DNA of 64,000 nucleotides. Origin: an uncultured Chloroflexia bacterium (GTDB lineage: Bacteria > Chloroflexota > Limnocylindria > Limnocylindrales > CSP1-4). The stretch covers positions 207,901 to 271,900 of the forward strand of contig CAVTHS010000006.1 of the NCBI GenBank assembly GCA_963734535.1, read 5' to 3'. The notes beneath the pieces are model-generated. The model did no database searches. It was not told the origin of the DNA and worked only from the letters and a program-made list of their open reading frames with translations. Position numbers and translations under genes: made by a program. Shown here one piece after another: positions 35,548 through 61,741 of the stretch (position 1 is its first letter; each line of letters opens with the position of its first letter).

Positions 35548-35569
35548 GGTATCGCCGAGGAACCAGCGC

Positions 35570-35947
35570 ATGAACGACGCAACTCGCGCCGCCCTCGCCC
35601 GGGGCGGGATCATCGACCTCACGACGACCGGCCGAAGGAGCGGCGAGCCGCGCCGGATCGAGATCGTCCTCCACGTCATCGACGGCCGCATCGTCGTCAG
35701 CGGGATGCCGCGCCGCGAGAAGCGTGCGTGGCTCGCCAACATCGAGGCGAACCCGCGGGTGACGGTCCACCTGAAGCGGGATGTCGTCGCGGACCTGCCC
35801 GGCGAAGCGCGGGTGGTGACCGACGAGCGGGAACGACGGGAGCTCCTCCGCCACGTCGCGCGGGCCTGGGGCCGCGACGACCTCGAGGTGATGCTCCGCT
35901 ACAGCCCCCTGGTCGAGATCGTCCTCGACGACCGGGCGATCGCCTGA
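35570..35947 (+). CDS. Deazaflavin (F420)-dependent nitroreductase-like protein
   Basis: 'DLTTTGRRSGEPRR', 'WLANIEANPRVTV'. Confidence 0.85.
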   Translation: MNDATRAALARGGIIDLTTTGRRSGEPRRIEIVLHVIDGRIVVSGMPRREKRAWLANIEANPRVTVHLKRDVVADLPGEARVVTDERERRELLRHVARAWGRDDLEVMLRYSPLVEIVLDDRAIA

Positions 35948-40475: not shown

Positions 40476-40821
40476 GCCCGTTCTTCACGCGGCCCCGTGT
40501 CGCTTCCGACCGACTCGCGGGCCTGCTACATGACCCTGATCGGGCCTCAGACTCGCCGCCGACGCTCACGCCGGGCACGATGGGCACGCGACGCCCGATC
40601 CATGATCCGGGCAGTACCTGTTCGGCATGTCCACGGCCGAAGGTACGACGGGCGCAAGTCGACGCCGAGCCTGCGGATGATCGCCGACTGTCCCGCTCGA
40701 CTCTGGTCAAGCTCGACGATGGGCCTTCGCCGACTCGGTGGAGAAGCTGGCGGTGGGTGTCAGGGGCGGGCCGCGTTGAGCGGGCCTTGCGCTGCCGGAG
40801 CGCCTGGGCCAAGGTTGTCAG

Positions 40822-46830: not shown

Positions 46831-47724
46831 TCAGGCCAGCTCGGCGCCCGACGCGCGGGCGTCGGCGGCGAACGACGCGAGGGCGTCGTCCGAGATCACG
46901 GATTCGGGTAGGAGCGTCTGGACGCGGCTGACGCCCGCTTCGCGATACGCCGCCAGCACGTCCTGGCGGGCGTGCCCCGCCGGGACGAGCTGCTCGTGCC
47001 AGATGTGCACCGAGATCGGCAGCGTCGCCGGGTCACGCCCGATCTCCTCGCACCGGGAGCGGATCACGGGCAGTGCCTCCCGCACCTCGCGAGGCTCGAG
47101 TCCATCGAGGTTCAGCTCATCGGCGAAGCGGGCGGCCAGACGCCAGGTCACGTTCGGCCCGTTGCCGCCCACCATGACCGGGACGCGCGGCTGCTGGACC
47201 GGCTTCGGCACGTTGATCGCGTCGCGAACGAGCGCGTGCGTCCCCTCGAACGTGGCGTGGTTCGTCCGCCCCGGCGCCAGCATCCGCGTGATGACTTCCA
47301 GGTCGTCGGCGAGCCGGGCCAGGCGCTCCTTCGTCTCCGGGAACCCGTAGCCGTACGCCAGCCACTCGTCGCGCTTCCACCCGGCGCCGATGCCAAGCTC
47401 CATTCGGCCGCCGCTTATGGCATCCATCGTCGAGATCATCTTCGCGGTCAGGGCGGGGTTCCGGAACGCCGTGCAGACCACGATGTGGCCCAGGCGGACG
47501 CGCGACGTGAGCGCCGCGAGTGCCGCGAGGGAGGTGAACGACTCGAACGTGATCTCGTCCGTCGGCCGCGGGACGGTGTGGAAGTGGTCGAAGAGCCAGA
47601 CCGACTCGAAGCCGAGCGCCTCCGCCTGCCGGGCGACCTCCACGGTGCGGTGCCACGCAGTGAGCGTCTCCCATCCGTCGTACTCGCCGATCCACCCCTG
47701 CGGCGCGATGATCCCGACCTTCAT
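46831..47724 (-). CDS. LLM class F420-dependent oxidoreductase
   Basis: 'GFESVWLFDHF', 'RNPALTAKM', 'LGIGAGW', 'PVMVGGNG'. Confidence 0.92.
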   Translation of the reverse strand: MKVGIIAPQGWIGEYDGWETLTAWHRTVEVARQAEALGFESVWLFDHFHTVPRPTDEITFESFTSLAALAALTSRVRLGHIVVCTAFRNPALTAKMISTMDAISGGRMELGIGAGWKRDEWLAYGYGFPETKERLARLADDLEVITRMLAPGRTNHATFEGTHALVRDAINVPKPVQQPRVPVMVGGNGPNVTWRLAARFADELNLDGLEPREVREALPVIRSRCEEIGRDPATLPISVHIWHEQLVPAGHARQDVLAAYREAGVSRVQTLLPESVISDDALASFAADARASGAELA

Positions 47725-49451: not shown

Positions 49452-50179
49452 ACGATCGGCGGGCCCGCTTCGCGATGTACCTCGAGTCGGTTTGTCACGG
49501 CAATCGGCCCCGGCCATCGGAACGGTTCGGTTCGTGCACCCGCGAAGCCGCCGCGGTCGGCCGCGGACGCCATCGGCGGGGCGCTCCGCTCGAGATGTCC
49601 CCAGCGGTCGGACAGGTCGTAGATGATCGCCCGGCCGCCCGGCCGCAACACGCGCCGGATCTCGGCGAACCCGCCGGCGGCATCCGACCAGTGGTGAACC
49701 GAGAACGAGCTGATCACGACATCGAACGAAGCGTCCGGGAAGGGGAGCGCCGTGACGTCGCCGACCTCGAACGCCAGGCGGCCGTCGAGCCCGTCCCGCC
49801 GCGCGCGGAGCCGCGCCAGGTCCACCATCGCCGCGTCGACGTCGAGGCCTGTCAGGCGCAGACGGGCAACGCGTCGGCCAAGCTCGACGGCCAGGTTGCC
49901 GGGTCCGGGGCCGATCTCCAGCACCTCGGGCGCCGCGATCGTGGCGATCGTCGCCGCGAGGTCGTCGGCCATCCGGCGATAGAGGCCGCCGAGCACGGCG
50001 CTTGCTGCCAGCTCGTACCAGCGCGCGCTCGGCGCCGAACACGTCGCCCACCCCGCGCATGCGTGGCCGCCGGACGTATCCGTCGATGCCGCCCGCGGGC
50101 GCTCGGCCCGCAGATATCGCCCGGCCGCGACCGCCGTTGCACTCAGTGCGGCCAGCATGAGAGCCCGTCGCATCCGCAC
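49448..50179 (-). CDS. Class I SAM-dependent methyltransferase
   Basis: 'LEIGPGPG', 'GDVTALPFPDASFD', 'HHW', 'VLRPGG'. Confidence 0.88.
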   Translation of the reverse strand: MRMRRALMLAALSATAVAAGRYLRAERPRAASTDTSGGHACAGWATCSAPSARWYELAASAVLGGLYRRMADDLAATIATIAAPEVLEIGPGPGNLAVELGRRVARLRLTGLDVDAAMVDLARLRARRDGLDGRLAFEVGDVTALPFPDASFDVVISSFSVHHWSDAAGGFAEIRRVLRPGGRAIIYDLSDRWGHLERSAPPMASAADRGGFAGARTEPFRWPGPIAVTNRLEVHREAGPPIV

Positions 50180-50429
50180 GAACCGAATCGTATCGGAAGC
50201 ACGCGGAACCGATCCTCGGGCGAGTCATGTCGGAGTCCAGCCCGAATGCCGGAAGGGCGCGTGTATGTGCCGGCCGGCTCCCCGTGCGGATCAACGGCCG
50301 GTCCATTCTCGGCCGGATGGCCCTGTTGCGCGGATTCTCCTCACCCTAGCGTGGCTGGCATCGCCGTGCGTTATGCGGGCCACGTCTCTGCACCGGCCTG
50401 CGGAGCGCGGCCTTTGTGTGGAGGGCTCG

Positions 50430-50963
50430 ATGACCGCCGGATCGGTCTCTGCGCTGCAACATTCCGAGGACCAGGACCTGATCGACCGGATCATCGGCGA
50501 GCGGGTTGGCCGCCCGGGCGCGCTCCTCGGCATCCTGGAGCAGCTGCAGGACCGCAACCCCCACAAGTTCCTCCCGATGGAGACGCTCGAGTACGTGGCG
50601 GCGCGCACGGGCATCCCCCAGTCGCAGGTCTACGGCGTCGCGACGTTCTTCGCGCTGTTCAACCTTGAACCGCAGGGCACGCACACCGTGGCCATCTGCC
50701 GCGGCACCGCGTGCCACACCCGCGGCTCGCGGCCGCTGCTCGAGCGCGTGAAGCTCCAGCTGGGCCTCGGGGACAGCAGCGACGGCGCCGACAAGATCTC
50801 GCTGACGACACCGGACCAGCGCTTCACGATCCGCACCGTCGCCTGTTTCGGCCAGTGCGCGCTCGCGCCGGTCGTGGAGATCGACCACGCGATCCGCGGC
50901 CACGTGAAGGAGCAGGTCCTGATCCGCGAGGTCGAGGCCCTGCGACGGGAGGGGGCGCGATGA
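50430..50963 (+). CDS. hoxE: NuoE-like [2Fe-2S] diaphorase subunit
   Basis: 'YGVATFF', 'CRGTACH', 'ACFGQCALAP'. Confidence 0.9.
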   Translation: MTAGSVSALQHSEDQDLIDRIIGERVGRPGALLGILEQLQDRNPHKFLPMETLEYVAARTGIPQSQVYGVATFFALFNLEPQGTHTVAICRGTACHTRGSRPLLERVKLQLGLGDSSDGADKISLTTPDQRFTIRTVACFGQCALAPVVEIDHAIRGHVKEQVLIREVEALRREGAR

Positions 50964-53900
50964 AGATCCAGGACTTCGCTGCGTTCTCCGCGGCGCGCGA
51001 GGCCGGGCTGGCGAAGCTGCTCCCCGGCCGGCCGCGCATCTCGGTCGGCATGGGCACGTGCGGCTCCGGGAACGGCGCCGAGGCCGTCTACCACGCCTTC
51101 AAGTCCGAGATCGACGCCCGCGGCATGGCCGTGGATCTGGTGCCGGTCGGCTGCTTCGGCTTCTGCGCCGAGGAGCCGCTCGTCAACGTGTGGGTGCCCG
51201 GACACCCGCTGCTGATGCTCCACCGCGTGCAGCCGAAGCACGTCGACGCGATCCTGACCGGCCTCGGCCACGGCACGCTGCCGGCCGCCGAGCTGGTGCT
51301 GTGCAAGATCGAGGAGTGGGACCACCTCACCGGCCGCGTGAAGTACGGCACCGGCTACCCCGACGTGCCCAGCTGGAACGAGATTCCGTTCTTCAACGGG
51401 CAGGTGAAGATCGTCCTGCGGAACTGCGGGCTGATCAATCCCGACGACATCGAGGAGTACATCGCGATCGGCGGGTACCAGGCCCTGTACAAGGTCCTGA
51501 TCGACCAGAACCCGGCCGGTGTGATCGAGCAGATCAAGGCGGCGAAGCTGCGTGGCCGCGGCGGCGCCGGCTACCTGACGGGCAACAAGTGGGAGTTCCT
51601 GCAGAAGGCGGCCGGGCCCGAGAAGTACCTCGTCTGCAATGCCGACGAAGGCGACCCCGGGGCCTACATGAACCGCAACGAGATCGAGTCCGACCCGCAC
51701 GGGCTCCTCGAGGGCATGATGATCGCGGGCTTCGTCACGGGCGCGCCCAGGGGGATCATCTACGTCCGTGCCGAGTATCCCCTCGCGGTGCTGCGCCTCG
51801 AACGCGCGATCGAGCAGGCCCGGGCCTACGGGATCCTGGGCGACAACGTTCTCGGACGCGGGTTCAGCTTCGACATCGAGACGGTGGAGGGTGCCGGCGC
51901 CTTCGTGTGCGGCGAGGAGACCGCGCTGATCGCGTCGCTCGAAAGCCAGTCCGGCCGGCCGCGGTCGCGCCCGCCGTTCCCGGCGCAGAAGGGCCTGTAC
52001 GGCAAGCCGACCAACATCAACAACGTCGAGACCTGGTACAACGTCGCGCCGATCGTCTCCAAGGGCCCGGCCTGGTTCACCGAGACCGGCAGCACCAAGA
52101 GCGCGGGCACGAAGGTGTTCTCGCTGGTCGGCAAGGTCCACAGCACCGGCCTGGTCGAGATGCCGCTCGGCACGCCGCTCTCGAAGTTCATCTACGACAT
52201 CGGTGAGGGCGGCACCAACGGCCGCGAGATCAAGGCCGTGCAGACGGGTGGCCCCTCGGGCGGCTGCATCCCGGCGGAGATGTTCGACACGCCCGTCGAC
52301 TACGAGACGCTCGCACAGCTCGGCTCGATCATGGGCTCCGGCGGCATGGTCGTCATGGACGAAGACAACTGCATGGTGGACGTCGCCCGCTACTTCATCG
52401 AGTTCACCCACTCGGAGAGCTGCGGCAAGTGCGTCCCGTGCCGCGTGGGCCTCGACAAGGCCCTGAGCATGCTCAACGGCTTCACGCTCGGAACGGCCAC
52501 GCACGAGGACATCGGGGCGCTCGACGAGCTGTGCCGCATGGTCCGCGACACCTCGCTCTGCGGGCTCGGCCAGAGCGCGCCGAACCCCGTTCTCACCAGC
52601 CTGCGCCACTTCCGGCACGAGTTCGAAGACCATATCGTGGCCAAGCGCTGCCGCGCGGGTGTCTGCGAGGAGCTGGCGCTCTCGCCATGCGAGAACTCGT
52701 GCCCGCTGCACATGAACATCCCGCGCTTCCTCCAGCTGTACAAGGAGGAGCGGGTCGAGGATGCCTTCCTGTCCGTGATCCTCGACAACCCCCTGCCGGC
52801 TTCGACGGGGCGCGTCTGCCAGCACCCATGCGACAACCGCTGCCGTCGTGCCGCGCTCGACGAGCCCGTGAACACGCGCGACGTGCACCGCAGGATCGCC
52901 GACGAGGTGCTGCTCTCCGCTGCGTTCGAGCCGATGGTGAGCCGCGTGCTGGAGCGACGGCTCGAGCCGACCGGGCGCGAGGTCGCGATCGTGGGCGCCG
53001 GTCCCACCGGCCTGACCTGCGCGTACTACCTCGCCCTGCTCGGTCACAGCGTGACCGTCTACGACCCTCGTCCCGCCGCCGGCGGCATGCTCCGCTACGC
53101 CCTGCCGGAATACCGGCTGCCGAAGGCGGTGCTCGACAAGGAGATCGAGCTGATCGAGCGCCTCGGCGTCAAGTTCCAGTTCAACGTGAAGGTCGGCGAG
53201 GACCTGGCGCTCAACGACGTGGCGCACCAGTTCGACGCCGTCTTCCTGGCGATCGGGACCTGGAAGGAGGCGTGGGTCTACCTGCCGGGAACCGAGCTCG
53301 CGGGCGTGATCCCGGCCCTGCCGTTCCTCGAAGCCGTGTCGCGCGATGAGCAGGTCCCGATCGGGAAGAACGTGGTCGTGATCGGCGGAGGCAACGCCGC
53401 GATCGACTCAGCGCGGACCGCGCGCCGGCTGGGCGCCGACGTGACGATCGTCTACCGCCGCGAGCGCAAGGACATGCCGGCGATCCCGGAAGAGATCGAG
53501 GCGGCCGAGCACGAGGGCGCCAAGGTCGTCTACCTCGCCGCGCCCCATCGGATCGTGGGCGACAAGAACGGGCAGGTCCGCGCGATCGAGGCAGTCAGGA
53601 CGAAGCCGGGCGAGTTCGACACCTCGGGCCGCCGCACGCCGGTACCGACGGACGAGGTGATCCGCATCGAGTGCGACAGCGTGATCCTCGCCGTGGGCGA
53701 GAAAGTGGACCCCGACTTCTGCAAGGCCTCCGGCCTGGTTGTGGAGGAGGCCGGCACGATCCAGGTCGATCGCTATTCGCTCGAGACCAGCCGCGACCGG
53801 TTCTACGCAGGCGGCGACCTCATCACCGGGGCGTCGAACGTGTCGAACGCGATGGGGATCGGCAAGAAGGCCGCCCGCAACATCGACAAGCGGTTGATGG

Positions 53901-54115
53901 GGCAGGAGCGTTTCCCGAGCCTGATCCCGGACTTCGCCTACGAGATGGTGCCGCCCGAGACACCGAGCGAGTCCGCCCGCCACGTGCCCGGCGAGATGCC
54001 CGCCGCCCGGCGGGTGCAGTCGTACGCCGAGGTGTCGCTCGGCCTGACGGCTGCAGCGGCGATGGAAGAGACGGCCCGGTGCCTTCGCTGCGACGTCCGC
54101 AGCGTCGAGAGATAG
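50960..54115 (+). CDS. hoxF: NuoF/HoxF-like FMN subunit fused to a GltD/NfnB-like Fe-S flavoprotein domain (1051 aa)
   Basis: 'LRGRGGAG', 'CNADEGDPG', 'GAFVCGEETAL', 'ESCGKCVPCR', then 'PCENSCP', 'GRVCQHPCDNRC', 'GAGPTG', 'GGGNAA..YRR', 'RCLRCD'. Confidence 0.9.
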   Translation: MKIQDFAAFSAAREAGLAKLLPGRPRISVGMGTCGSGNGAEAVYHAFKSEIDARGMAVDLVPVGCFGFCAEEPLVNVWVPGHPLLMLHRVQPKHVDAILTGLGHGTLPAAELVLCKIEEWDHLTGRVKYGTGYPDVPSWNEIPFFNGQVKIVLRNCGLINPDDIEEYIAIGGYQALYKVLIDQNPAGVIEQIKAAKLRGRGGAGYLTGNKWEFLQKAAGPEKYLVCNADEGDPGAYMNRNEIESDPHGLLEGMMIAGFVTGAPRGIIYVRAEYPLAVLRLERAIEQARAYGILGDNVLGRGFSFDIETVEGAGAFVCGEETALIASLESQSGRPRSRPPFPAQKGLYGKPTNINNVETWYNVAPIVSKGPAWFTETGSTKSAGTKVFSLVGKVHSTGLVEMPLGTPLSKFIYDIGEGGTNGREIKAVQTGGPSGGCIPAEMFDTPVDYETLAQLGSIMGSGGMVVMDEDNCMVDVARYFIEFTHSESCGKCVPCRVGLDKALSMLNGFTLGTATHEDIGALDELCRMVRDTSLCGLGQSAPNPVLTSLRHFRHEFEDHIVAKRCRAGVCEELALSPCENSCPLHMNIPRFLQLYKEERVEDAFLSVILDNPLPASTGRVCQHPCDNRCRRAALDEPVNTRDVHRRIADEVLLSAAFEPMVSRVLERRLEPTGREVAIVGAGPTGLTCAYYLALLGHSVTVYDPRPAAGGMLRYALPEYRLPKAVLDKEIELIERLGVKFQFNVKVGEDLALNDVAHQFDAVFLAIGTWKEAWVYLPGTELAGVIPALPFLEAVSRDEQVPIGKNVVVIGGGNAAIDSARTARRLGADVTIVYRRERKDMPAIPEEIEAAEHEGAKVVYLAAPHRIVGDKNGQVRAIEAVRTKPGEFDTSGRRTPVPTDEVIRIECDSVILAVGEKVDPDFCKASGLVVEEAGTIQVDRYSLETSRDRFYAGGDLITGASNVSNAMGIGKKAARNIDKRLMGQERFPSLIPDFAYEMVPPETPSESARHVPGEMPAARRVQSYAEVSLGLTAAAAMEETARCLRCDVRSVER

Positions 54116-54126
54116 GGAGTATCGCC

Positions 54127-54834
54127 TTGACCGAGAAGGTGAAGGTCCGCATCGACGGCGAGGTGATCGCGGCGACCGCCGGCCAGACGATCCTCGAGGT
54201 CGCGCGAGCGAACGGCAAGTACATCCCGGCCCTCTGCTACATGGAGGGCCTCAGCGCGGTCGGCGCATGCCGGCTGTGCATGGTCCAGGTCGCCGGTGTC
54301 GCACGCCTGCTGCCGGCCTGCACCACGCCCGTGCAGGAGGGCCTGGCGATCGACACCACCTCGACGCAGCTCCATTCCTATCGCAAGATGGCGCTCGAGC
54401 TGCTGCTCGCCGAGCGCAACCACGTCTGTGCCGTGTGCGTGTCCTCCGGTCACTGCGAGCTGCAGGCCCTGGCCCAGGAGCACGGGGTCACGTACGTTCG
54501 CTACCCGTACAACTTCCCGCGACTCGCCGTCGACACCACGCACCCGCGCTACGTGCTCGACCACAACCGCTGCGTGCTCTGCTCGCGGTGCGTGCGCACC
54601 TGCGCCGAGATCGAGGGCGCGCACGTCTGGGACATGGCGGGTCGCGGCATCGATACCCGGCTGGTCTCCGAGCTGAAGCGGCCCTGGGGGGAGGCCACCA
54701 GCTGCACCAGCTGCGGCAAGTGCGTGCAGGCATGCCCGACCGGCGCGATGGCTGAGAAGGGATGGGCGGTCGAGGAGATGACGAAGCACCGGACGGTCGT
54801 CAGCCGCCTCACCTCGATGCGCGAGGGCCAGTGA
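54127..54834 (+). CDS. hoxU: Bidirectional hydrogenase Fe-S subunit
   Basis: 'GACRLC', 'HVCAVC..SGHCELQ', 'RCVLCSRCVRTC', 'CTSCGKCVQACPTG'; TTG start. Confidence 0.92.
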   Translation: MTEKVKVRIDGEVIAATAGQTILEVARANGKYIPALCYMEGLSAVGACRLCMVQVAGVARLLPACTTPVQEGLAIDTTSTQLHSYRKMALELLLAERNHVCAVCVSSGHCELQALAQEHGVTYVRYPYNFPRLAVDTTHPRYVLDHNRCVLCSRCVRTCAEIEGAHVWDMAGRGIDTRLVSELKRPWGEATSCTSCGKCVQACPTGAMAEKGWAVEEMTKHRTVVSRLTSMREGQ

Positions 54835-55379
54835 TGGACAAGGTGAAGATCGGAACCTGCTGGCTCGACGGGTGCTCGGGCTGCCACATGTCGCTGCTCG
54901 ACATGGACGAGGGGATCGTCGCCGTGCTGCGGAAGGCCGACATCGTGTTCGGGCCACTCGTCGACGCGCAGGAGTGGCCCGAGGGCGTCGACGTGGCCGT
55001 GATCGAGGGCGCGGTCAGCAGCCAGGACGACCTCAAGCTCGCCCGGACCGCCCGGGCGCGCAGCAAGGTCGTGGTGGCGCTCGGCGACTGCGCGGTGACC
55101 GGCAACGTGCCGTCGCTGCGCAACGGCATCCCCGTGCGCACGCTGCTCAAGCGGGTCTACGTCGAGGGCGCGACCGAGCGACCGGGCAGCGAGCCACCGA
55201 GCGTGCCGACGGACGGCGTGCCCGCGCTGCTCAAGCAGGCGGAGCCGCTCCACTCGGCGATCAAGGTCGATGTCCACGTTCCCGGCTGCCCGCCCAGGCC
55301 CAACGCGATCCTGTTCGTGCTGAGCGAGCTGCTCGAGGGCCGTACGCCCGACCTCGGCTCCAAGATGCGGTTCGGGTAG
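54834..55379 (+). CDS. hoxY: [NiFe] hydrogenase small subunit
   Basis: 'WLDGCSGCHMS', 'LGDCA', 'PGCPP'. Confidence 0.93.
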   Translation: MDKVKIGTCWLDGCSGCHMSLLDMDEGIVAVLRKADIVFGPLVDAQEWPEGVDVAVIEGAVSSQDDLKLARTARARSKVVVALGDCAVTGNVPSLRNGIPVRTLLKRVYVEGATERPGSEPPSVPTDGVPALLKQAEPLHSAIKVDVHVPGCPPRPNAILFVLSELLEGRTPDLGSKMRFG

Positions 55380-55480
55380 GGCGGGCCATGGCAACCAGGA
55401 AAGCTGCGTCGCCGACGCAGGGTCGCGAGCCCGTCGCGGATGCGGCCGCCCAGCCGCCGGCGGGGGCCAGGAGACCAGCC

Positions 55481-56902
55481 ATGAAGAAGATCATGATCGA
55501 TCACGTGTCCCGCATCGAGGGTCACGCCAGGATCACGATCAAGCTCGACGACGCGGGGCAGGTGTCCGGCACCCAGTTCCACGTGACGCAGGTCCGCGGC
55601 TTCGAGAAGTTCATCGAGGGACGGCCGTACTACGAGATGCCGTCGATCACGTCGCGCATCTGCGGCATCTGCCCGGTGAGCCACCTGCTCGCCTCGTCCA
55701 AGGCGTGCGACGCGATCATGGCCGTTCGCATCCCTGCCGCCGCGGCGAAGCTCCGCGAGCTCATCCACTGCGCGCAGTTCGTCCAGTCGCACGCGCTGTC
55801 GTTCTTCCACCTCTCTGCCCCCGACCTGCTGCTGGGCATGGAGTTCGATCCCGCCAAGCGCAATGTCGCGGGGCTGCTCGAGGAGCACCCCGACGCCCTG
55901 CGGGACGGGATCGCGCTGCGCAAGTTCGGCCAGCAGGTGATCGAACGGCTTGCCCGGGAGCGCATCCACCCCTCGTGGATCGTGCCCGGCGGCGTCAATG
56001 CCCCCCTCGACCCGCACGCCCGGGAGATGACGCTCGCCGAGCTGCCCGGGGCCATGGCGATCGTGAAGCGCACGCTCGCGCTCTGGAAGGGGACCGTCGA
56101 GCGCTTCCCGGACGAGATCGACTCCTTCTCGAACTTCCCCACGATGTACTGCGGCCTCGTCGGGCCGGACGGCTCGCTGCGGCTCTACGACGGCAACCTT
56201 CGCTTCGTCGGCCCCGATGGCAGCATCGTCGCCGACCAGGTGGCGCCCGACGACTACGCGACGTACATCGGCGAGGCGACGCTACCGGACTCGTACCTGA
56301 AGGCGCCGTACTACAAGCCCGTCGGCTACCCCGACGGCATCTACCGCGTCGGCCCGCTCGCTCGCCTCAACGTCGCCGACCGGTGCGGGACGCCGCAGGC
56401 CGACGCCGAGCTCGAGGAGTACCGCGGGCGGTTCGGTCGCATCGTCCAGAGTGGCTTCCACTACCACTACGCGCGGTTGATCGAGGCCCTCTACGCCCTC
56501 GAGCGCATGCAGGAGCTGCTCGACGACCCCTCCACCGTGGGGACCATGGTCCGCGCCCACGCGGGCGTCAACGACCTCGAGGGCGTCGGCGTCATCGAGG
56601 CCCCGCGCGGCACGCTGATCCACCACTACAGGGTGGACGCCAACGGCGCCATGACGTGGGCCAACCTCGTCGTCGCGACCGGCCACAACAACCTCGCCAT
56701 CGGCCGGGGCATCCTCCAGGTGGCCAAGCGATTCGTCGACGGCAACAAGATCCGGGAAGGCGCCCTCAACCGCGTCTCCGCCCTGGTCCGTGCCTACGAC
56801 CCCTGCCTCAGCTGCTCCACGCACGCCCTCGGCATGGTCCCGCTGGCCATGCAGCTGCGAGGGCCGGATGGTCAGCTGCTCGACGAGGTCAGAACGGAGT
56901 AA
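55481..56902 (+). CDS. hoxH: [NiFe] hydrogenase large subunit, group 3d-like (alternative start 55388)
   Basis: 'SRIEGH', L1 'RICGICPVSH', L2 'DPCLSCSTH' plus a cleavable C-terminal extension. Confidence 0.95.
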   Translation: MKKIMIDHVSRIEGHARITIKLDDAGQVSGTQFHVTQVRGFEKFIEGRPYYEMPSITSRICGICPVSHLLASSKACDAIMAVRIPAAAAKLRELIHCAQFVQSHALSFFHLSAPDLLLGMEFDPAKRNVAGLLEEHPDALRDGIALRKFGQQVIERLARERIHPSWIVPGGVNAPLDPHAREMTLAELPGAMAIVKRTLALWKGTVERFPDEIDSFSNFPTMYCGLVGPDGSLRLYDGNLRFVGPDGSIVADQVAPDDYATYIGEATLPDSYLKAPYYKPVGYPDGIYRVGPLARLNVADRCGTPQADAELEEYRGRFGRIVQSGFHYHYARLIEALYALERMQELLDDPSTVGTMVRAHAGVNDLEGVGVIEAPRGTLIHHYRVDANGAMTWANLVVATGHNNLAIGRGILQVAKRFVDGNKIREGALNRVSALVRAYDPCLSCSTHALGMVPLAMQLRGPDGQLLDEVRTE

Positions 56903-57019
56903 TCCCAGTCCGGGGGGTGCGGGCCGGCGGCAGCCAGACGGTCATTCGTCCCGCCTGCTCGAGGGCCGTCACAACCTGGATGTGCCGGCCCCCGGCTCAG
57001 CTTCGTGCTGGTAGGCCGC

Positions 57020-60000
57020 TCAGCTGCAGCCGCTCGTGGAGCCGCAGTTGAGGCACTTGTAGCAGCTCCCGTTGCGGACCATGATCGAGCCGCAGTCGGC
57101 GCAGCTGGGCGCGTCCTCCTGGATCTTGAACGCGGTTCGCTCCGCGCTCAGCGAGGCCGTCAGGGCCGACACCGCGCCGGCCTTGCCGTTGCCGTTCGTG
57201 TGACCGTTCCTTGCCTCGACGGTGCCCAGGTCCGCCTTCGCGACCACGGGCGGTCCGGACCGGCCGGTCGTGTCCGGGGCCGTCGTGGCGGTCGTGGCCG
57301 TGCCGGTCGCAACCGCGGTCGTGGCCGGCGGCTCCTTCGCCTCGTCGATCGCGGACGGACCTTCCTCCGGCTGGGGGGCGAGCGCCCCGCCGAAGGCGAA
57401 CGGCGTCGCCCCGACGATGGAGCCGTGCTCCTGGAGCCCGAGCGCCGCCCTGTCGTCGCCGACGAGGAAGCGGCTGCCGAGCCAGCGGAAGATGTAGTCG
57501 ATCACCGACTTCGCGATCGGGATCTCCGGGTTTCCGGTGAAGCCGGACGGCTCGAACCGAACGTGGGCGAACTTGTTGATGAGGTCGCGCAGCGGAACGC
57601 CGTATTGCAGCGAGAGGCTGATCGCGGTGGCGAAGGTGTCCATCAGGCCCGAGACCGTGGAGCCTTCCTTCGCCATCTTCAGGAAGATCTCGCCGGGCTG
57701 CCCGTCCGGGTAGAGGCCCACCGTGATGTAGCCCTCGTGGCCGGTGATGTCGAACTTGTGGGTGACCGCGGCCCGCTCCGCCGGGAGGCGCCGGCGATGC
57801 GGCTTGAGCGCCTCGACCTGCGCGGCCGCGAGCTTCTTGCGCAGCTCGTCGACGACGTCGGAGGCGGCCTTCGTCTCGTCGTCGCTCTTGAGCTTGCTGG
57901 TGCTGAGCGGCTGGCTCCGCTTGCTGTTGTCGCGGTAGATCGCGATCGCCTTGAGGCCCCGCTTCCAGCCCTCGAGGTAGATCTCCTCGATCTCCTCGGC
58001 CGTCGCGGCCTCCGGCATGTTGACGGTCTTGCTGATCGCGCCGGACAGGAACGGCTGGACTGCCGCCATCATCCGGACGTGGCCCATCGGGAGGATGGAG
58101 CGGACGCCGTTGCGGGGCTTGAACGCGCAGTCGAAGACCGTGAGGTGCTCCGGCCTCAGGCCCGGGGCGCCCTCGATCGTCTCGCGCTCATTGATGTAGG
58201 CGACGATCTCCTCGACCTGGTCCGGCGTGTACCCGAGCTTGCGGAGGGCGCCGGGCACGGTCCCGTTGACGATCTTGAGGTAGCCCTCGCCGACGAGCTT
58301 CTTGTACTTGATGAGCGCGATGTCCGGCTCGATGCCGGTGGTATCGCAGTCCATCATGAACGCGATGGTCCCAGTTGGGGCGAGCAGGGTGGTCTGCGCG
58401 TTGCGGTAGCCGTGGCGCTCGCCGAGCTCGTAGGTCTCGTCCCAGAGTGCGCGGGCGGTCGCGCCGAGGCCGGCCGGGACGCCCTCCGCGGGGATGTGGG
58501 CGGCCGCCTTCGCGGTGCATGTCGATGACGTGCATGAACGGCTCGCGGTTCTTCTCGAACTCGATGAACGGGCCGCCGTGGTCGCGGGCGATGACGGCAC
58601 TCTGCCGGTAGGCCTCCGCGGTCATGACCGATGTGATCGCGCCCGCGTACGCCTGCCCGGCGGCTGAGTCGTAGGCGAGGCCGCGGCTCATCAGCAGGGC
58701 GCCCAGGTTCGCGTAGCCCAGGCCGAGCGGCCGGAAGCGGTGGCTGTTCTCCTCGATCTTCGGCGTGGGGTAGCTCGCGTTGTCGACGAGGATCTCCTGG
58801 GCCGTGATCGTCACGCGACAGCCGTAGCGGAACGCGTCGACGTCGAGCTCGCCGTCCTCGCCGACGAACGTCATCAGGTTGAGCGAGGCCAGGTTGCAGC
58901 TGGTGTCGTCCAGGAACAAGAATTCGCTGCAGGGGTTCGTTGCGTACTGGCGGTCCGTGTTGGAGACCGGGTTCCACGCGTTGATCGTGGTGTCGTACTG
59001 GATCCCCGGGTCTCCGCAGACGTGGGCGGCGTCGGCCATCCGACGGAAGATCTCGCGGGCCCTGTGGGTGCCCATGGGCGCGCCCCCGACCACCGCGTGC
59101 GTGGTCCAGTCCCCGTCCGCCTGCACGGCGCGCATGAAGTCGTCCGTCACGCGGACCGAGTGGTTCGCGTTCTGGAACCCCACGCTCCCGTAGGCCTCGC
59201 CGGTGAACAACGCGTCGTAGCCCTGCTCGATGAGCGCCCAGGCCTTCTTCTCCTCGAGCTTCTTGCTGTCGATGAAGTCGAGGATGTCCGGGTGGCCGAC
59301 GTCGAGGATGACCATCTTCGCCGCACGCCTGGTCTTGCCGCCTGAGTTGTGGGAGACGATCCCGTTCGCGACGAACGCGTGGACGTCCGGGACGGTGAAG
59401 TCGTACGTCAGCGCCTGCCCTGCGTCGGCGACGTTCACGACCTCGTCCCAGAGGTATTCGTCGTCGAGGACGCGCTCGATGGTTCCGCCAATTCCGGGCG
59501 AGAGGCGCGCGACCTGGTCGACGAGACCGGGGATCGCCCGCGTCCGCGCGTACGAGACGTTCTCGCTCGACCGGTTGAAGATCCCGAAACCTGTGTGCAC
59601 GGCTTCGCCGTTCGTCGCCCGGGCCCAGCCGTTGCGGCCCGTGAGGAGTGATCGCAGGGCGGGCACGAGCCCCGGGATGACGTCGAGGTTCGGGTTTCGG
59701 CTCGCTGGCACAGCGGCGAGCGCCGCGGCAGCCTCGCGCTTTCGAGGTGTGACGAGGTAGGGCCGGAGAAGGCGCGCGAAACGCGCCACCTCGGCGCCGA
59801 GGAAGGTCAGTCGCTGGTAGCCGTTGATCGTCGACCGGCGCCCAACGACGCCCAGGTTGAGCGCGATCAGCTGGATCTCCTCGGCGAGGCGACGGGAGGC
59901 GGTCGCGATCTCGAGCCGGGTCGGGCCCAGGTGCGCATCGCCTTCGGCGTATGCAGCGAGGAACTCGAGCACGAGCGACCGCGGAGAGCGGCGGATCGAG

Positions 60001-61545
60001 AGCGGGATGCCCTTGACGGCCGACAGGCCGGCCGGCAGGCCGCAGAACGCGAGGAACTGGAGAGCGCCCTGCCAACTGAGTGTGACGGACTCGGTCCGCA
60101 CGCCCGTGCTGGCATTGATCCGACCGCGGACCTGGCCACGGGGATCGACGCCGAAGACGGATTCGATGCAGCGGCAGTAGTCGGCCATCACCTCCGGATC
60201 GGCGGAGCTGAAGCGGAACCGCTCTTGCTCGACGGATCCCTCGGCCACGAGGTAGCCGAGGAGGCGGGCAAGCTCGGGGTTCATCTCGGTCGGGTAGCGC
60301 AGCGCTCGCCGCTCGACGACAAGGTCTGGCGCGAACAGGTCGAGCGAAGGCGCAACGGACGGCCACAGCTCGCGGCGGCGCTCGACGGCGACGCGGTCCC
60401 CGGCCTTGAGATCGGCGAGCCGCGTCCAGCGGAGCTCGAATGGCGAGGCCAGCGTGAGGACCGGGTGCTCGTGCGTGCCGGTCAGCTCGAGGCCAGTTCG
60501 GAGCGTCACGCGGCGGACATCCGCGAGCGGGCTCCGATAGATGTGCGAGATTCGGGTCGGCCCGGCCGGCGTGTTGAGCGTGAGCGAGTCGTCCTCGACG
60601 AAGCCGACCGGACCATCCACCTCGATCGCCTCGTCGATCCGGAGGAGCCCGCCGCCCGTCGCAACATAGGCATCGGCCGTCAAGCACTTCACGACGCCCG
60701 CAAATGCGTCGTAGCCGCGCATGAACGAGACGGGGCCGCTGGCCGTTCCGCCGCCGGCCATCTTCTCCCGGGATGAGCGGATGGTGGAGAGGTTGCTGCC
60801 CGCGCCGGAGCCGAACTTGAAGAGCATCGCCTCCGTCTTGGCCAGGTCCATGATGCTGGTCATCGAGTCCTGGACGGAGTTGATGAAGCAGGCCGAGCAC
60901 TGCGGCTTGGCCTCGATCCCCACGTTGAACCAGACCGGCGAGTTGAAGCTCATCTTCTGGTGGACCAGGAGATGGGTGAGCTCCGCACCGAACGTGGCGA
61001 GGTCCTCGTCCGTCGCGAAGTAGTGCTGCGTCTCCGCCCAGGCGGTGATCGACTGCACGACGCGATCGATCAGCTGCCGGACCGACGTCTCGCGCTCCGG
61101 CGTGCCGAGGTGGCCGCGGAAGTACTTGCTGACGACGACGTTCGTGGCCAGCTGGCTCCAGAAGGCGGGGACCTCCACGTCCTTCTGCTCGAAGACGAGC
61201 TTGCCGGACTCGTTGCCGATCGCGGCTGTCCGGATCTCCCAGGGGATCTCGTCGTAGGGATGCACGCCGGGCCGGGTCCAGCGACGCTCGAACGTGAGGC
61301 CACGGACGCCATCGCCCGTGAACCGGAGCGCGTCCATCGCGGCGCGCGCCGCGCGGTCCGCGTCGTCCCGCAGCCCCCTGGCGGCCGCGAAGGCGGCCTC
61401 CGCGCCGGCCCTGACGGCCGCCGAGCCGACGAGGTCCGAAGCTCCGGCCGCAATCCCCGGCGCGTCGGAGGCTCCCTTGCGACTCTTCCGGGGGGGTTCC
61501 GTCCTGCGCCACCACCGGGGCGACCTCGCGTGCGGCTCGTGCCAT
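57020..61545 (-). CDS. nrdJ: Class II (B12-dependent) ribonucleotide reductase with intein (apparent frameshifts at ~58515 and ~61490)
   Basis: 'FNSPVWFN', 'SACFI', 'TNPCSEF', 'CNLASLNL', 'APTGTI', TSCPD domain and C-terminal zinc ribbon; RBS GAGGGAG before the ATG at 61545. Confidence 0.95.
59346..60686 (-). mobile_element. Intein with LAGLIDADG homing endonuclease (447 aa)
   Basis: Extein 'AGVVK|CLTADA...FVANGIVSHN|SGGKTRR'; LAGLIDADG-like 'LLGYLVAEGS' and 'FLAAYAEGDA'. Confidence 0.95.
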
Positions 61546-61741
61546 CTCTGCGCTGCTCCCTCACCGAACCGACGGGTCCCCCCGCCGCGGGTCATGCCGG
61601 CGGTGTGGCCGGCGCTCCTCGTAGACTGCGACGGCCTCGGCGTGGGATGCCGGTCGACCGTTCGTCTCGCCGCCGTGGGTCCGGTCCGGGCCTCCGCGAG
61701 TCTTCCTCGAGAGGGCTCACCCGGTGGCGAGCGGTCCCGTG

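Follow-up and report, generated by a model that had tools for sequence, protein, structure and literature searches.

A stretch of 64,000 nucleotides from an uncultured Chloroflexia bacterium (GenBank assembly GCA_963734535.1, contig CAVTHS010000006.1, positions 207,901 to 271,900 of the forward strand; the whole stretch is referred to below as the window) contains an operon for a Hox-type [NiFe] hydrogenase, in which the HoxF subunit continues beyond its flavin core into an Fe-S/FAD/NADPH-type module of the GltD/NfnB type. Five co-directional open reading frames occupy positions 50430-56902 of the plus strand exactly, with no internal stops in the translation. They encode five intact subunits; two flavin/nucleotide sites are predicted, the cluster ligands form an unbroken set, and conservation is strong. 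With confidence falling a little short of even, the product is read here as a soluble five-subunit [NiFe] hydrogenase of the Hox/NiFe-HydABCSL lineage, in which FMN would couple H2 to NAD(H) and FAD would couple it to NADP(H), the latter in the place of ferredoxin. The original prediction, made from the letters of the sequence, had named the same span and a Hox-type [NiFe] hydrogenase, and all the strings it quoted (GAYM, GGPSG, DEDNC, HIVAKRCRAGVC and GGGNAA...YRR) occur in the HoxF translation, which is one uninterrupted frame and has, as predicted, 1051 residues.

Domain composition and cofactor sites of HoxF

The N-terminal part of HoxF aligns with HydB and NfnB from residue 26, and an AlphaFold2 model gives it a beta-alpha-beta pattern. 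The thioredoxin-like domain that had been predicted is present, but the Fe-S label attached to it must be regarded as tentative, since a single Cys stands where HydB of Acetomicrobium mobile has a CX4C pair, a pattern shared with NfnB of Caldicellulosiruptor (Csac). In Csac NfnB this site holds Zn instead of an Fe-S cluster, with three Cys and one Glu as ligands (PMC11829005). Residues C34, C65, C69, E72 and C115 are conserved in an alignment of 29 rows sharing 47-95% identity with the HoxF of the window, on which the conservation counts of this section are based. The one-Cys pattern was also considered as a trait specific to the fusion and was rejected, as 49 of 105 non-fusion rows have it as well as 28 of 38 rows with the fusion.

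The ligands of the B1 [4Fe-4S] cluster in the core (C488, C491, C494 and C534) are invariant (29/29 rows), and the flavin-site signature of the Bfu enzymes (A202 and M204 of A. mobile; AFM, GGPSG) is present as A235-Y236-M237 and G430-G434. The core is followed by an H-x5-C-x4-C motif, of which H558, C564 and C569 do not vary in any of the 29 rows; the B2 (Zn) site of Bfu enzymes consists of three Cys and one His, and two Cys and the His could be mapped here. Eight residues lead from C569 of this zinc motif to C577, the first Cys of the module, and 13 lead to the first ferredoxin Cys in ferredoxin-tailed BfuB (for example, that of locus L072). In sequence terms the module therefore begins where B3/B4 begin, and in space it presumably occupies the B3/B4 position as well. 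Besides Fer4_20, no Fer4-type Pfam domain was found in HoxF.

The two [4Fe-4S] sites of Fer4_20 were placed by alignment to 9n5u_A, 9bov_A, 8oh5_C and 5jca_L, and the individual ligands were mapped onto Csac NfnA (the chain numbering of 9n5u_A is offset by 3). The A7 cluster of Csac NfnA is ligated by Cys108, Cys147, Cys151 and Lys170 (PMC11829005), and by this mapping the proximal cluster of HoxF would be held by C581, C620, C624 and His643, the last at the position of Lys170. The distal cluster would be held by C577, C628 and C1041-x2-C1044, a permuted order that is also seen in StnC and 9bov_A. All seven Cys of the two clusters (C577, C581, C620, C624, C628, C1041 and C1044) are invariant in 29/29 rows, and the string RCLRCD stands near the protein end in 26/26 loci proteins checked. 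His643 (window 52886-52888) was found in 28/29 rows, with Lys in a divergent Dehalococcoidia fusion (L059); it is a small family-specific trait at a candidate ligand position.

In the FAD and NAD(P)H domains, G679, G681, G684, G809, G811, N812, D816, Y832, R833, R834, G952 and D953 are invariant, and the Arg pair R833-R834 is taken by us to be NADPH-specific. The original prediction had placed a complete Fe-S/FAD module with an NADPH-type site where HydB has its ferredoxin domain, and had named a GltD domain without FAD as a finding that would speak against it. Both the Pfam matches and the motifs, those for FAD included, which are invariant in 29/29 rows, are in agreement with a complete module at this place.

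Structural relatives and phylogeny

As was found by comparison with solved structures, the closest relative of each subunit is the electron-bifurcating NiFe-HydABCSL of A. mobile (7t2r). The E-values are 4e-183 for HoxF 26-572 with chain B, 9e-159 for HoxH with chain D, 1e-68 for HoxU with residues 3-213 of chain A and 1.9e-31 for HoxE with chain C; the second match of HoxH is chain D of 5xf9, a NAD-reducing hydrogenase of group 3d (5e-121). Residues 575-1045 of HoxF align with the NfnB-like modules of 9bov_A (1e-108), Csac NfnA (9n5u_A, 8e-103), StnC (8oh5_C, 2e-94) and NfnL (5jca_L, 4e-96).

A tree of the core region was obtained by a quick search on 38 rows, comprising 29 of the 69 fusion loci and proteins, eight tailed BfuB and, as the root, a tail-less HoxF encoded elsewhere in the same genome; frameshifted rows were excluded. 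Twenty-eight fusion cores form one clade with a long stem (SH-aLRT 100), and the forms linked to [FeFe] hydrogenase and those encoded in hoxEFU-only operons are nested within it. The Dehalococcoidia fusion L059, on a long branch, and the ferredoxin-tailed BfuB of Synergistota lie outside the fusion clade, in an order that the tree leaves unresolved.

Distribution of the fusion

The relatives listed (120 of 8000 scored, 83-95% identity) are all 1030-1058 residues long and contain the same four Pfam families, so that the survey of domain architecture suggested with the original prediction bears out the fused form. Those that carry a name are called Limnocylindrales or Chloroflexota 'FAD-dependent oxidoreductase' or 'NuoF'. 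In a scan of one genome per species, a HoxF relative was encoded in at least 599 of at least 600 candidate stretches, and 80 loci were kept. The fusion is present in 69 of these 80, and hoxYH accompanies it in 46 of the 69. In 44 loci the fusion is followed by hoxU, hoxY and hoxH in the same order as in the window, and in two hoxYH lies upstream. Three loci carry the fusion followed by a HydA-like gene of 594-600 residues ([FeFe] type), and in five there is too little downstream sequence to classify. The remainder of the 80 consists of three loci where HoxF is broken by a contig end before residue 700 and eight with ordinary BfuB bearing a ferredoxin tail.

A further 15 of the 80 loci hold hoxE, the fused hoxF and hoxU without hoxYH within at least 3 kb downstream. 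These operons (L013, L014, L016, L019, L022, L034, L037, L043, L053, L061 and L064-L068) come from metagenome-assembled genomes of Acidobacteriaceae and Terracidiphilus, and four of them were included in the tree, where they group in a single clade (SH-aLRT 99).

The carriers among the loci kept include Chloroflexota, Acidobacteriota, Alpha- and Betaproteobacteria, Hydrogenedentota, Omnitrophota, Bacteroidales and Nitrospirota. In soil and wetland Chloroflexota, Acidobacteriota and Proteobacteria the fused form is common and widespread, and the enzyme of the window is a real, ordinary-looking member of a widespread variant whose function is predicted. Inside the class of the window the distribution of the fusion is patchy: a full-length fusion at 81% identity or more was found in 5 of 101 sampled genomes (the genome of the window is counted, and one copy is split by a frameshift), and the two genomes of the same genus gave only a canonical HoxF-type match, to residues 142-570.

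With clustering at 50%, the best 150 contained about a dozen clusters of full-length NuoF-GltD proteins; several are without the AFM-type motif, and all have H-x5-C-x4-C before the module. Distant full-length fusions of 34-40% identity without the AFM-type motif (P0134, P0140, P0142, P0148, P0156, P0158, P0204 and P0209) keep H-x5-C-x4-C just before the module. It seems that the NuoF-GltD junction is older or more general than the hydrogenase context.

Possible mechanism and alternatives

If the tentatively favoured reading is right, electrons from H2 would pass from the NiFe site through HoxY and HoxU to B1 and FMN. The first outlet would be the transfer of a hydride from FMN to NAD+; the second would start at the HoxE cluster, pass along both [4Fe-4S] clusters in the fused module and reach NADP+ by way of FAD, with 2 H2 + NAD+ + NADP+ <-> NADH + NADPH + 2 H+ as the overall reaction. 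NADP(H) would take the part that ferredoxin plays in HydABC and HydABCSL, and the two reductions would be coupled (bifurcation, or confurcation when H2 is formed). With NADPH kept more reducing than NADH, NADPH would help NADH to drive the release of H2, or, at low H2, the NADPH pool would be filled by H2. The low-potential branch of Bfu enzymes runs from FMN and C1 through B3 and B4 to ferredoxin (PMC11829005). Three points favour energetic coupling: the ferredoxin exit has given way to the module, the parts that serve gating are retained, and the NADPH pool of the cell is more reducing than its NADH pool. With -380 mV for NADPH and -280 mV for NADH, Nernst arithmetic gives an equilibrium H2 pressure of ~3e-5 bar for NADH alone and of ~1.4e-3 bar for NADH and NADPH together. 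The NADH potential is that given in PMC9304861.

The enzyme may go further and be a ferredoxin-free bifurcating or confurcating [NiFe] hydrogenase, which would split electron pairs from H2 between NAD+ on the high-potential side and NADP+ at the fused module on the low-potential side, or in which NADPH would pull the NADH-driven release of H2; this we consider rather unlikely. The idea of bifurcation is kept alive by HoxEFUYH of Synechocystis, a tail-less Hox enzyme that is reported to bifurcate (10.64898/2026.06.25.734504).

Several observations weigh against a coupled NAD/NADP hydrogenase. At standard potentials NAD and NADP are equal, and coupling therefore pays only if the cellular pools differ. 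The Synechocystis enzyme bifurcates to soluble ferredoxin without a tail, and ferredoxin may therefore remain the low-potential partner here too. The original prediction had treated GAYM, GGPSG and HIVAKRCRAGVC as typical of bifurcating subunits; the tail-less HoxF of the same genome has GAFM, GGPSG and HIVDRVCPAGVC, so these motifs mark lineage or ancestry and not the tail, nor do they establish function. As signs of bifurcation they are not diagnostic. The place of the fused clusters relative to the HoxE cluster is a prediction from sequence, and the AlphaFold2 model of HoxF, built on the 29-row alignment, is mediocre (pLDDT 73.4 overall and below 50 both in the linker 563-580 and in the ligand loops; pTM 0.51). 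As 15 of the 69 fusion loci are without hoxYH, the module can apparently work without a hydrogenase. The group 3d [NiFe] enzymes of Hydrogenedentota were called 'probably incapable' of bifurcation, two Fe-S clusters being missing (PMC11406978). In the literature searched, with subscription journals and supplements outside its scope, neither a description of the NiFe HoxF-GltD fusion nor an assay of any form of the fusion was found; the passages covered were from PMC9304861, PMC11406978, 10.1101/197269, 10.1101/2021.08.23.457424, 10.64898/2026.10.24.761498, PMC5037454 and PMC5736913.

Possible traces of expression speak for the enzyme, with reservations. Contigs of four metatranscriptome libraries, wetland libraries among them, match the operon with an identity of at least 90% and cover 30/30 of its bins (854, 1607, 1145 and 871 contigs per library). 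They are mostly 90-95% alike and stem mostly from relatives, not from this strain, and they give only a hint of expression, because RNA libraries can hold DNA. Among the pieces listed, no RNA contig bridges the junction of the hoxF core and the module, and contig ends fall at 52683/52686, just before codon 577.

An uncoupled enzyme with two cofactors is a doubtful alternative. It would have independent exits at FMN for NAD(H) and at FAD for NADP(H), used according to supply, and would serve as an NAD(P)-flexible redox valve and, by default, a slow transhydrogenase. Both nucleotide sites look intact, as this would require, and the equal standard potentials fit it, as do the Bfu-type motifs of the tail-less HoxF, by which gating is not demanded. 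The hoxEFU-only operons fit it well. The three-Cys pattern of the N-terminal domain, which binds Zn in Csac NfnB, points in the same direction, as one cluster of a classical site may be missing, and PMC11406978 doubts bifurcation in group 3d enzymes that are without two clusters. This argument is countered by Csac NfnABC, which bifurcates with Zn at both the B2 and the B5 site (PMC11829005). Moreover, the HoxE and zinc-motif apparatus, which serves gating in Bfu enzymes, is invariant, and the module is placed precisely at the exit of low potential rather than on the HoxU relay, the insertion point of the module in Stn/NfnABC.

It is improbable, though less so than an artefact, that soluble ferredoxin is still a partner, docking, as in Synechocystis HoxEFUYH, near the clusters of HoxE and of the N-terminal domain of HoxF, with the fused module as an extra mid-potential input as in Stn/NfnABC. 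One complex would then combine a bifurcating hydrogenase (H2 + NAD+ + ferredoxin) with a transhydrogenase of the Stn type (NADPH + NAD+ + ferredoxin). Bifurcation to soluble ferredoxin without a ferredoxin tail is on record for Synechocystis (10.64898/2026.06.25.734504), StnC/NfnA have an NADPH-input domain with which the fused module shares homology (E 1e-94 to 1e-108), and hoxEFU-only operons in 15/69 fusion loci are what would be expected of a stand-alone transhydrogenase. The module of Stn/NfnABC, however, sits in the A subunit and feeds A3 (PMC11829005), while here it forms the C-terminus of the B subunit. In addition, the N-terminal CX4C, which binds F2 in the four-Cys type, is down to one Cys, whereas the tail-less HoxF of the genome keeps CX4C...CX3C; this point is weak, given the 49 of 105 non-fusion rows with the same reduction.

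That the fusion arose as an artefact of assembly, a case the original prediction had allowed for, or of annotation, or that the gene is decaying, is hardly credible and is refuted by the relatives: there are likely indel errors elsewhere in the genome (two frames each for nrdJ, a 3b-like large subunit and a nuoF-like gene), but the 1051-codon frame is uninterrupted, 120/120 relatives listed share its length and domains, 69/80 loci kept carry the fusion in independent assemblies from several phyla, and the ligand columns are invariant.

Genes of the operon and their surroundings

The coordinates of the five genes and of the sites in HoxF are given in Table 1. All genes of the group 3d set, hoxE-F-U-Y-H, are in one operon here. 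HoxE is similar to NuoE and HydC, with a thioredoxin-like [2Fe-2S] domain (the C1/E1 cluster) whose four Cys align with 7t2r_C. HoxU is a predicted relay subunit with one [2Fe-2S] and three [4Fe-4S] clusters, as indicated by Fer2_4, the NuoG His-cluster motif and a dicluster domain in Pfam. HoxY has the 20-kDa fold and HoxH belongs to NiFeSe_Hases by Pfam. The large subunits of [NiFe] hydrogenases bind the metals through an N-terminal RxCGxC and a C-terminal DPCxxC motif. HoxH has RICGIC and DPCLSCSTH, and its translation extends for 25 residues beyond the His, so an endopeptidase should be needed. Among the NCBIfam equivalogs, HoxU scored 345.3 bits, above the cut-off of 333, and HoxE 117 bits, below the cut-off of 224; HoxF, HoxY and HoxH match no NCBIfam model above its cut-off.

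Table 1. Genes of the hydrogenase operon and predicted sites of HoxF, in window coordinates
Feature	Position	Strand	Product or residues	Basis
hoxE	50430-50963	+	177 aa	ATG preceded by GGAGGG; PF01257 E 8e-35
hoxF, fusion gene (P0001)	50960-54115	+	1051 aa	ATGA overlap with hoxE; PF01512, PF10589, PF14691, PF07992
N-terminal thioredoxin-like domain (B5/F2 position)	51035-51319	+	HoxF 26-120	Aligned with the N-terminal domain of 7t2r_B and 9n5u_B
NuoF/HydB core: FMN and NAD(H) site, B1 [4Fe-4S]	51407-52627	+	HoxF ~150-556	Complex1_51K PF01512 (192-363), NADH_4Fe-4S PF10589 (474-558)
H-x5-C-x4-C motif	52631-52666	+	HoxF H558-C569	Aligns with HIKDKRCPAKIC of 7t2r_B (in HydB, the motif of zinc site B2)
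Fer4_20, two [4Fe-4S] sites	52688-52909	+	HoxF 577-650 (C577, C581, C620, C624, C628, H643)	PF14691 (561-650)
FAD and NAD(P)H domains	52979-53899	+	HoxF 674-980 (GAGPTG; GGGNAAID...YRR; GGD)	Pyr_redox_2 PF07992 (674-966) E 1e-31
CLRC, completing the distal [4Fe-4S] site	54080-54091	+	HoxF C1041-x2-C1044	Aligned with RCLEC/RCLQC of 9bov_A, 8oh5_C, 5jca_L
hoxU	54127-54834	+	235 aa	TTG start, GGGAG before it; PF13510, PF10588, PF22117
hoxY	54834-55379	+	181 aa, [NiFe] small subunit	PF01058 E 2.6e-30
hoxH	55481-56902	+	473 aa, [NiFe] large subunit	PF00374

No hyp or protease gene was found in the 64-kb window; HypD is encoded on contig C8 of the same genome, and one HycI-type protease on contig C2, adjoining another hydrogenase. 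The operon is flanked upstream by a divergent SAM methyltransferase gene and a WYL regulator and downstream by a convergent class II ribonucleotide reductase gene with an intein. The latter gene (B12-dependent type, LAGLIDADG intein; window 57020-61595, minus strand) is split over two frames that overlap (58188-61595 and 57020-58600) and that cover positions 68-343 and 361-523 of the barrel profile, with a frameshift or an assembly indel within 58188-58600. Farther away, an F420H2-dependent quinone reductase-like gene (35549-35947) and a luciferase-like monooxygenase gene (46831-47724) hint at the use of F420 in this genome.

A search of the window for the Rex operator gave a sole match with two mismatches at 40815, well away from the operon; of 100 shuffled sequences, 22 did equally well. 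A scan of 49900-57300 for promoters and terminators gave nothing above shuffles.

Other hydrogenases and related genes of the genome

The genome also encodes a second soluble Hox-type hydrogenase on contig C2 (G000:C2:25300-30200; L086:2288-7189, minus strand), with a HoxF that has neither a ferredoxin tail nor a GltD module. This HoxF, which served as the root of the tree, ends directly after HIVDRVCPAGVC. HoxU, HoxY and HoxH of this enzyme are 50-57% identical to those of the window, and its NuoE-like part looks broken or fused in frame. The presence of a tail-less Hox enzyme beside the fusion enzyme in the same genome argues for distinct roles.

The same contig carries a group 3b-like hydrogenase (G000:C2:14200-19240; L085:9097-14236, minus strand), with a subunit containing Fer4_22, NAD_binding_1 and DHODB_Fe-S_bind, small and large subunits and the HycI-type protease; the large subunit is read in two frames. 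A nuo-like gene row is located on contig C14 (G000:C14:68360-72400; L088:3367-7404, plus strand), with NuoH-, NuoE- and NuoF-like genes upstream and a NuoK-like gene downstream. The frame in the NuoG position combines Fer2_4, Fer4_20, Pyr_redox_2 and Fer4, which amounts to an NADPH module similar to that of Stn/NfnA, and the 4Fe-4S part of NuoF lies in another frame (L088:4157-4732). Indels or a mega-fusion may account for this row.

Possible significance

Surveys of soils and wetlands tally group 3d hydrogenases as fermentative enzymes with a simple link to NAD. If H2 were linked to NADPH, or if the NADH and NADPH pools were coupled, models of H2 release and uptake for aerobic soil bacteria under hypoxia would have to be extended by a term. 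The known forms of the Bfu mechanism would be joined by a natural one whose ferredoxin branch terminates at a flavin, and bifurcation between two pyridine-nucleotide pools would be built into a [NiFe] enzyme.

Comparison with known systems

In canonical enzymes of group 3d, HoxF is about 530-600 residues long and FMN is its sole flavin. The HoxF of the window, with 1051 residues and an added FAD/NADPH module, departs from this in both respects. HoxEFUYH of Synechocystis, a tail-less enzyme, is reported to bifurcate and confurcate with NAD(H) and ferredoxin and to be inert with NADPH, with its low-potential branch at the [2Fe-2S] clusters of HoxE and of the HoxF N-terminus (10.64898/2026.06.25.734504, a preprint of June 2026). 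The two enzymes share the five-gene set, a short HoxU, the flavin-site motifs and the absence of a ferredoxin tail, while the Synechocystis enzyme has no GltD-type module and the HoxE of the window scores below the NCBIfam cut-off for HoxE.

The NiFe-HydABCSL of A. mobile (7t2r/7t30, Bfu family) is similar in that its HydB aligns end to end with HoxF 26-572 and shares the AFM-type motif, GGPSG, the B1 ligands and H-x5-C-x4-C. It differs in ending with a ferredoxin domain of two [4Fe-4S] clusters, where HoxF continues with Fer4_20, FAD and NADPH domains, in having the N-terminal CX4C where HoxF has a single Cys, and in the size of HydA, which comprises 692 residues against the 235 of HoxU, a protein that passes the equivalog cut-off for HoxU. 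The search rule for the Bfu family calls for a BfuB with a C-terminal ferredoxin-type domain of two [4Fe-4S] clusters (B3/B4; IPR017896) (PMC9304861). HoxF has no such B3/B4 domain, whereas HoxE corresponds to the BfuC subunit with its C1 [2Fe-2S] cluster.

The same replacement is already in print for [FeFe] enzymes, and no paper on the NiFe form was found in the literature searched. In 'sub-type I BfuB' of [FeFe] group A3, DPD_II and an FAD/NAD(P)-binding domain replace B3/B4, and a second bifurcating centre was speculated upon (Zheng & Huang 2024, PMC11406978). The architecture is the same, and the [FeFe]-linked fusions L051 and L079 lie inside the clade of the NiFe-linked ones; the partner is [FeFe] HydA there and a [NiFe] hydrogenase here. 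In the passages covered, PMC11406978 does not describe a fused module in the group 3d [NiFe] enzymes of its phylum. Under the HydDB rules, GltD-linked [FeFe] hydrogenases of group A2 are recognised only if NuoF is absent.

Stn/NfnABC (8oh5, 9n5u, 9bov) likewise have an NfnB-like Fe-S/FAD/NADPH module together with a HydB/HydC core, and their CxxC follows the flavin domains. Their module is inserted in the A subunit, which is similar to HydA/FdhA, and not attached to HoxF in place of B3/B4, as it is here, where HoxU is without a module. In these enzymes the module feeds cluster A3 and ferredoxin leaves via B3/B4 (PMC11829005). Their NfnA-type subunits have Lys at the non-Cys ligand position, where 28/29 rows of the present family have His. 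NfnSL (the large subunit of NfnI; NfnL of Pfu, 5jca_L) and GltD share the fold and the motifs of the module (E 4e-96), but no NfnS-type partner adjoins it here, the CxxC is shifted to the C-terminus, and 5jca_L has Glu at the position occupied by His in HoxF.

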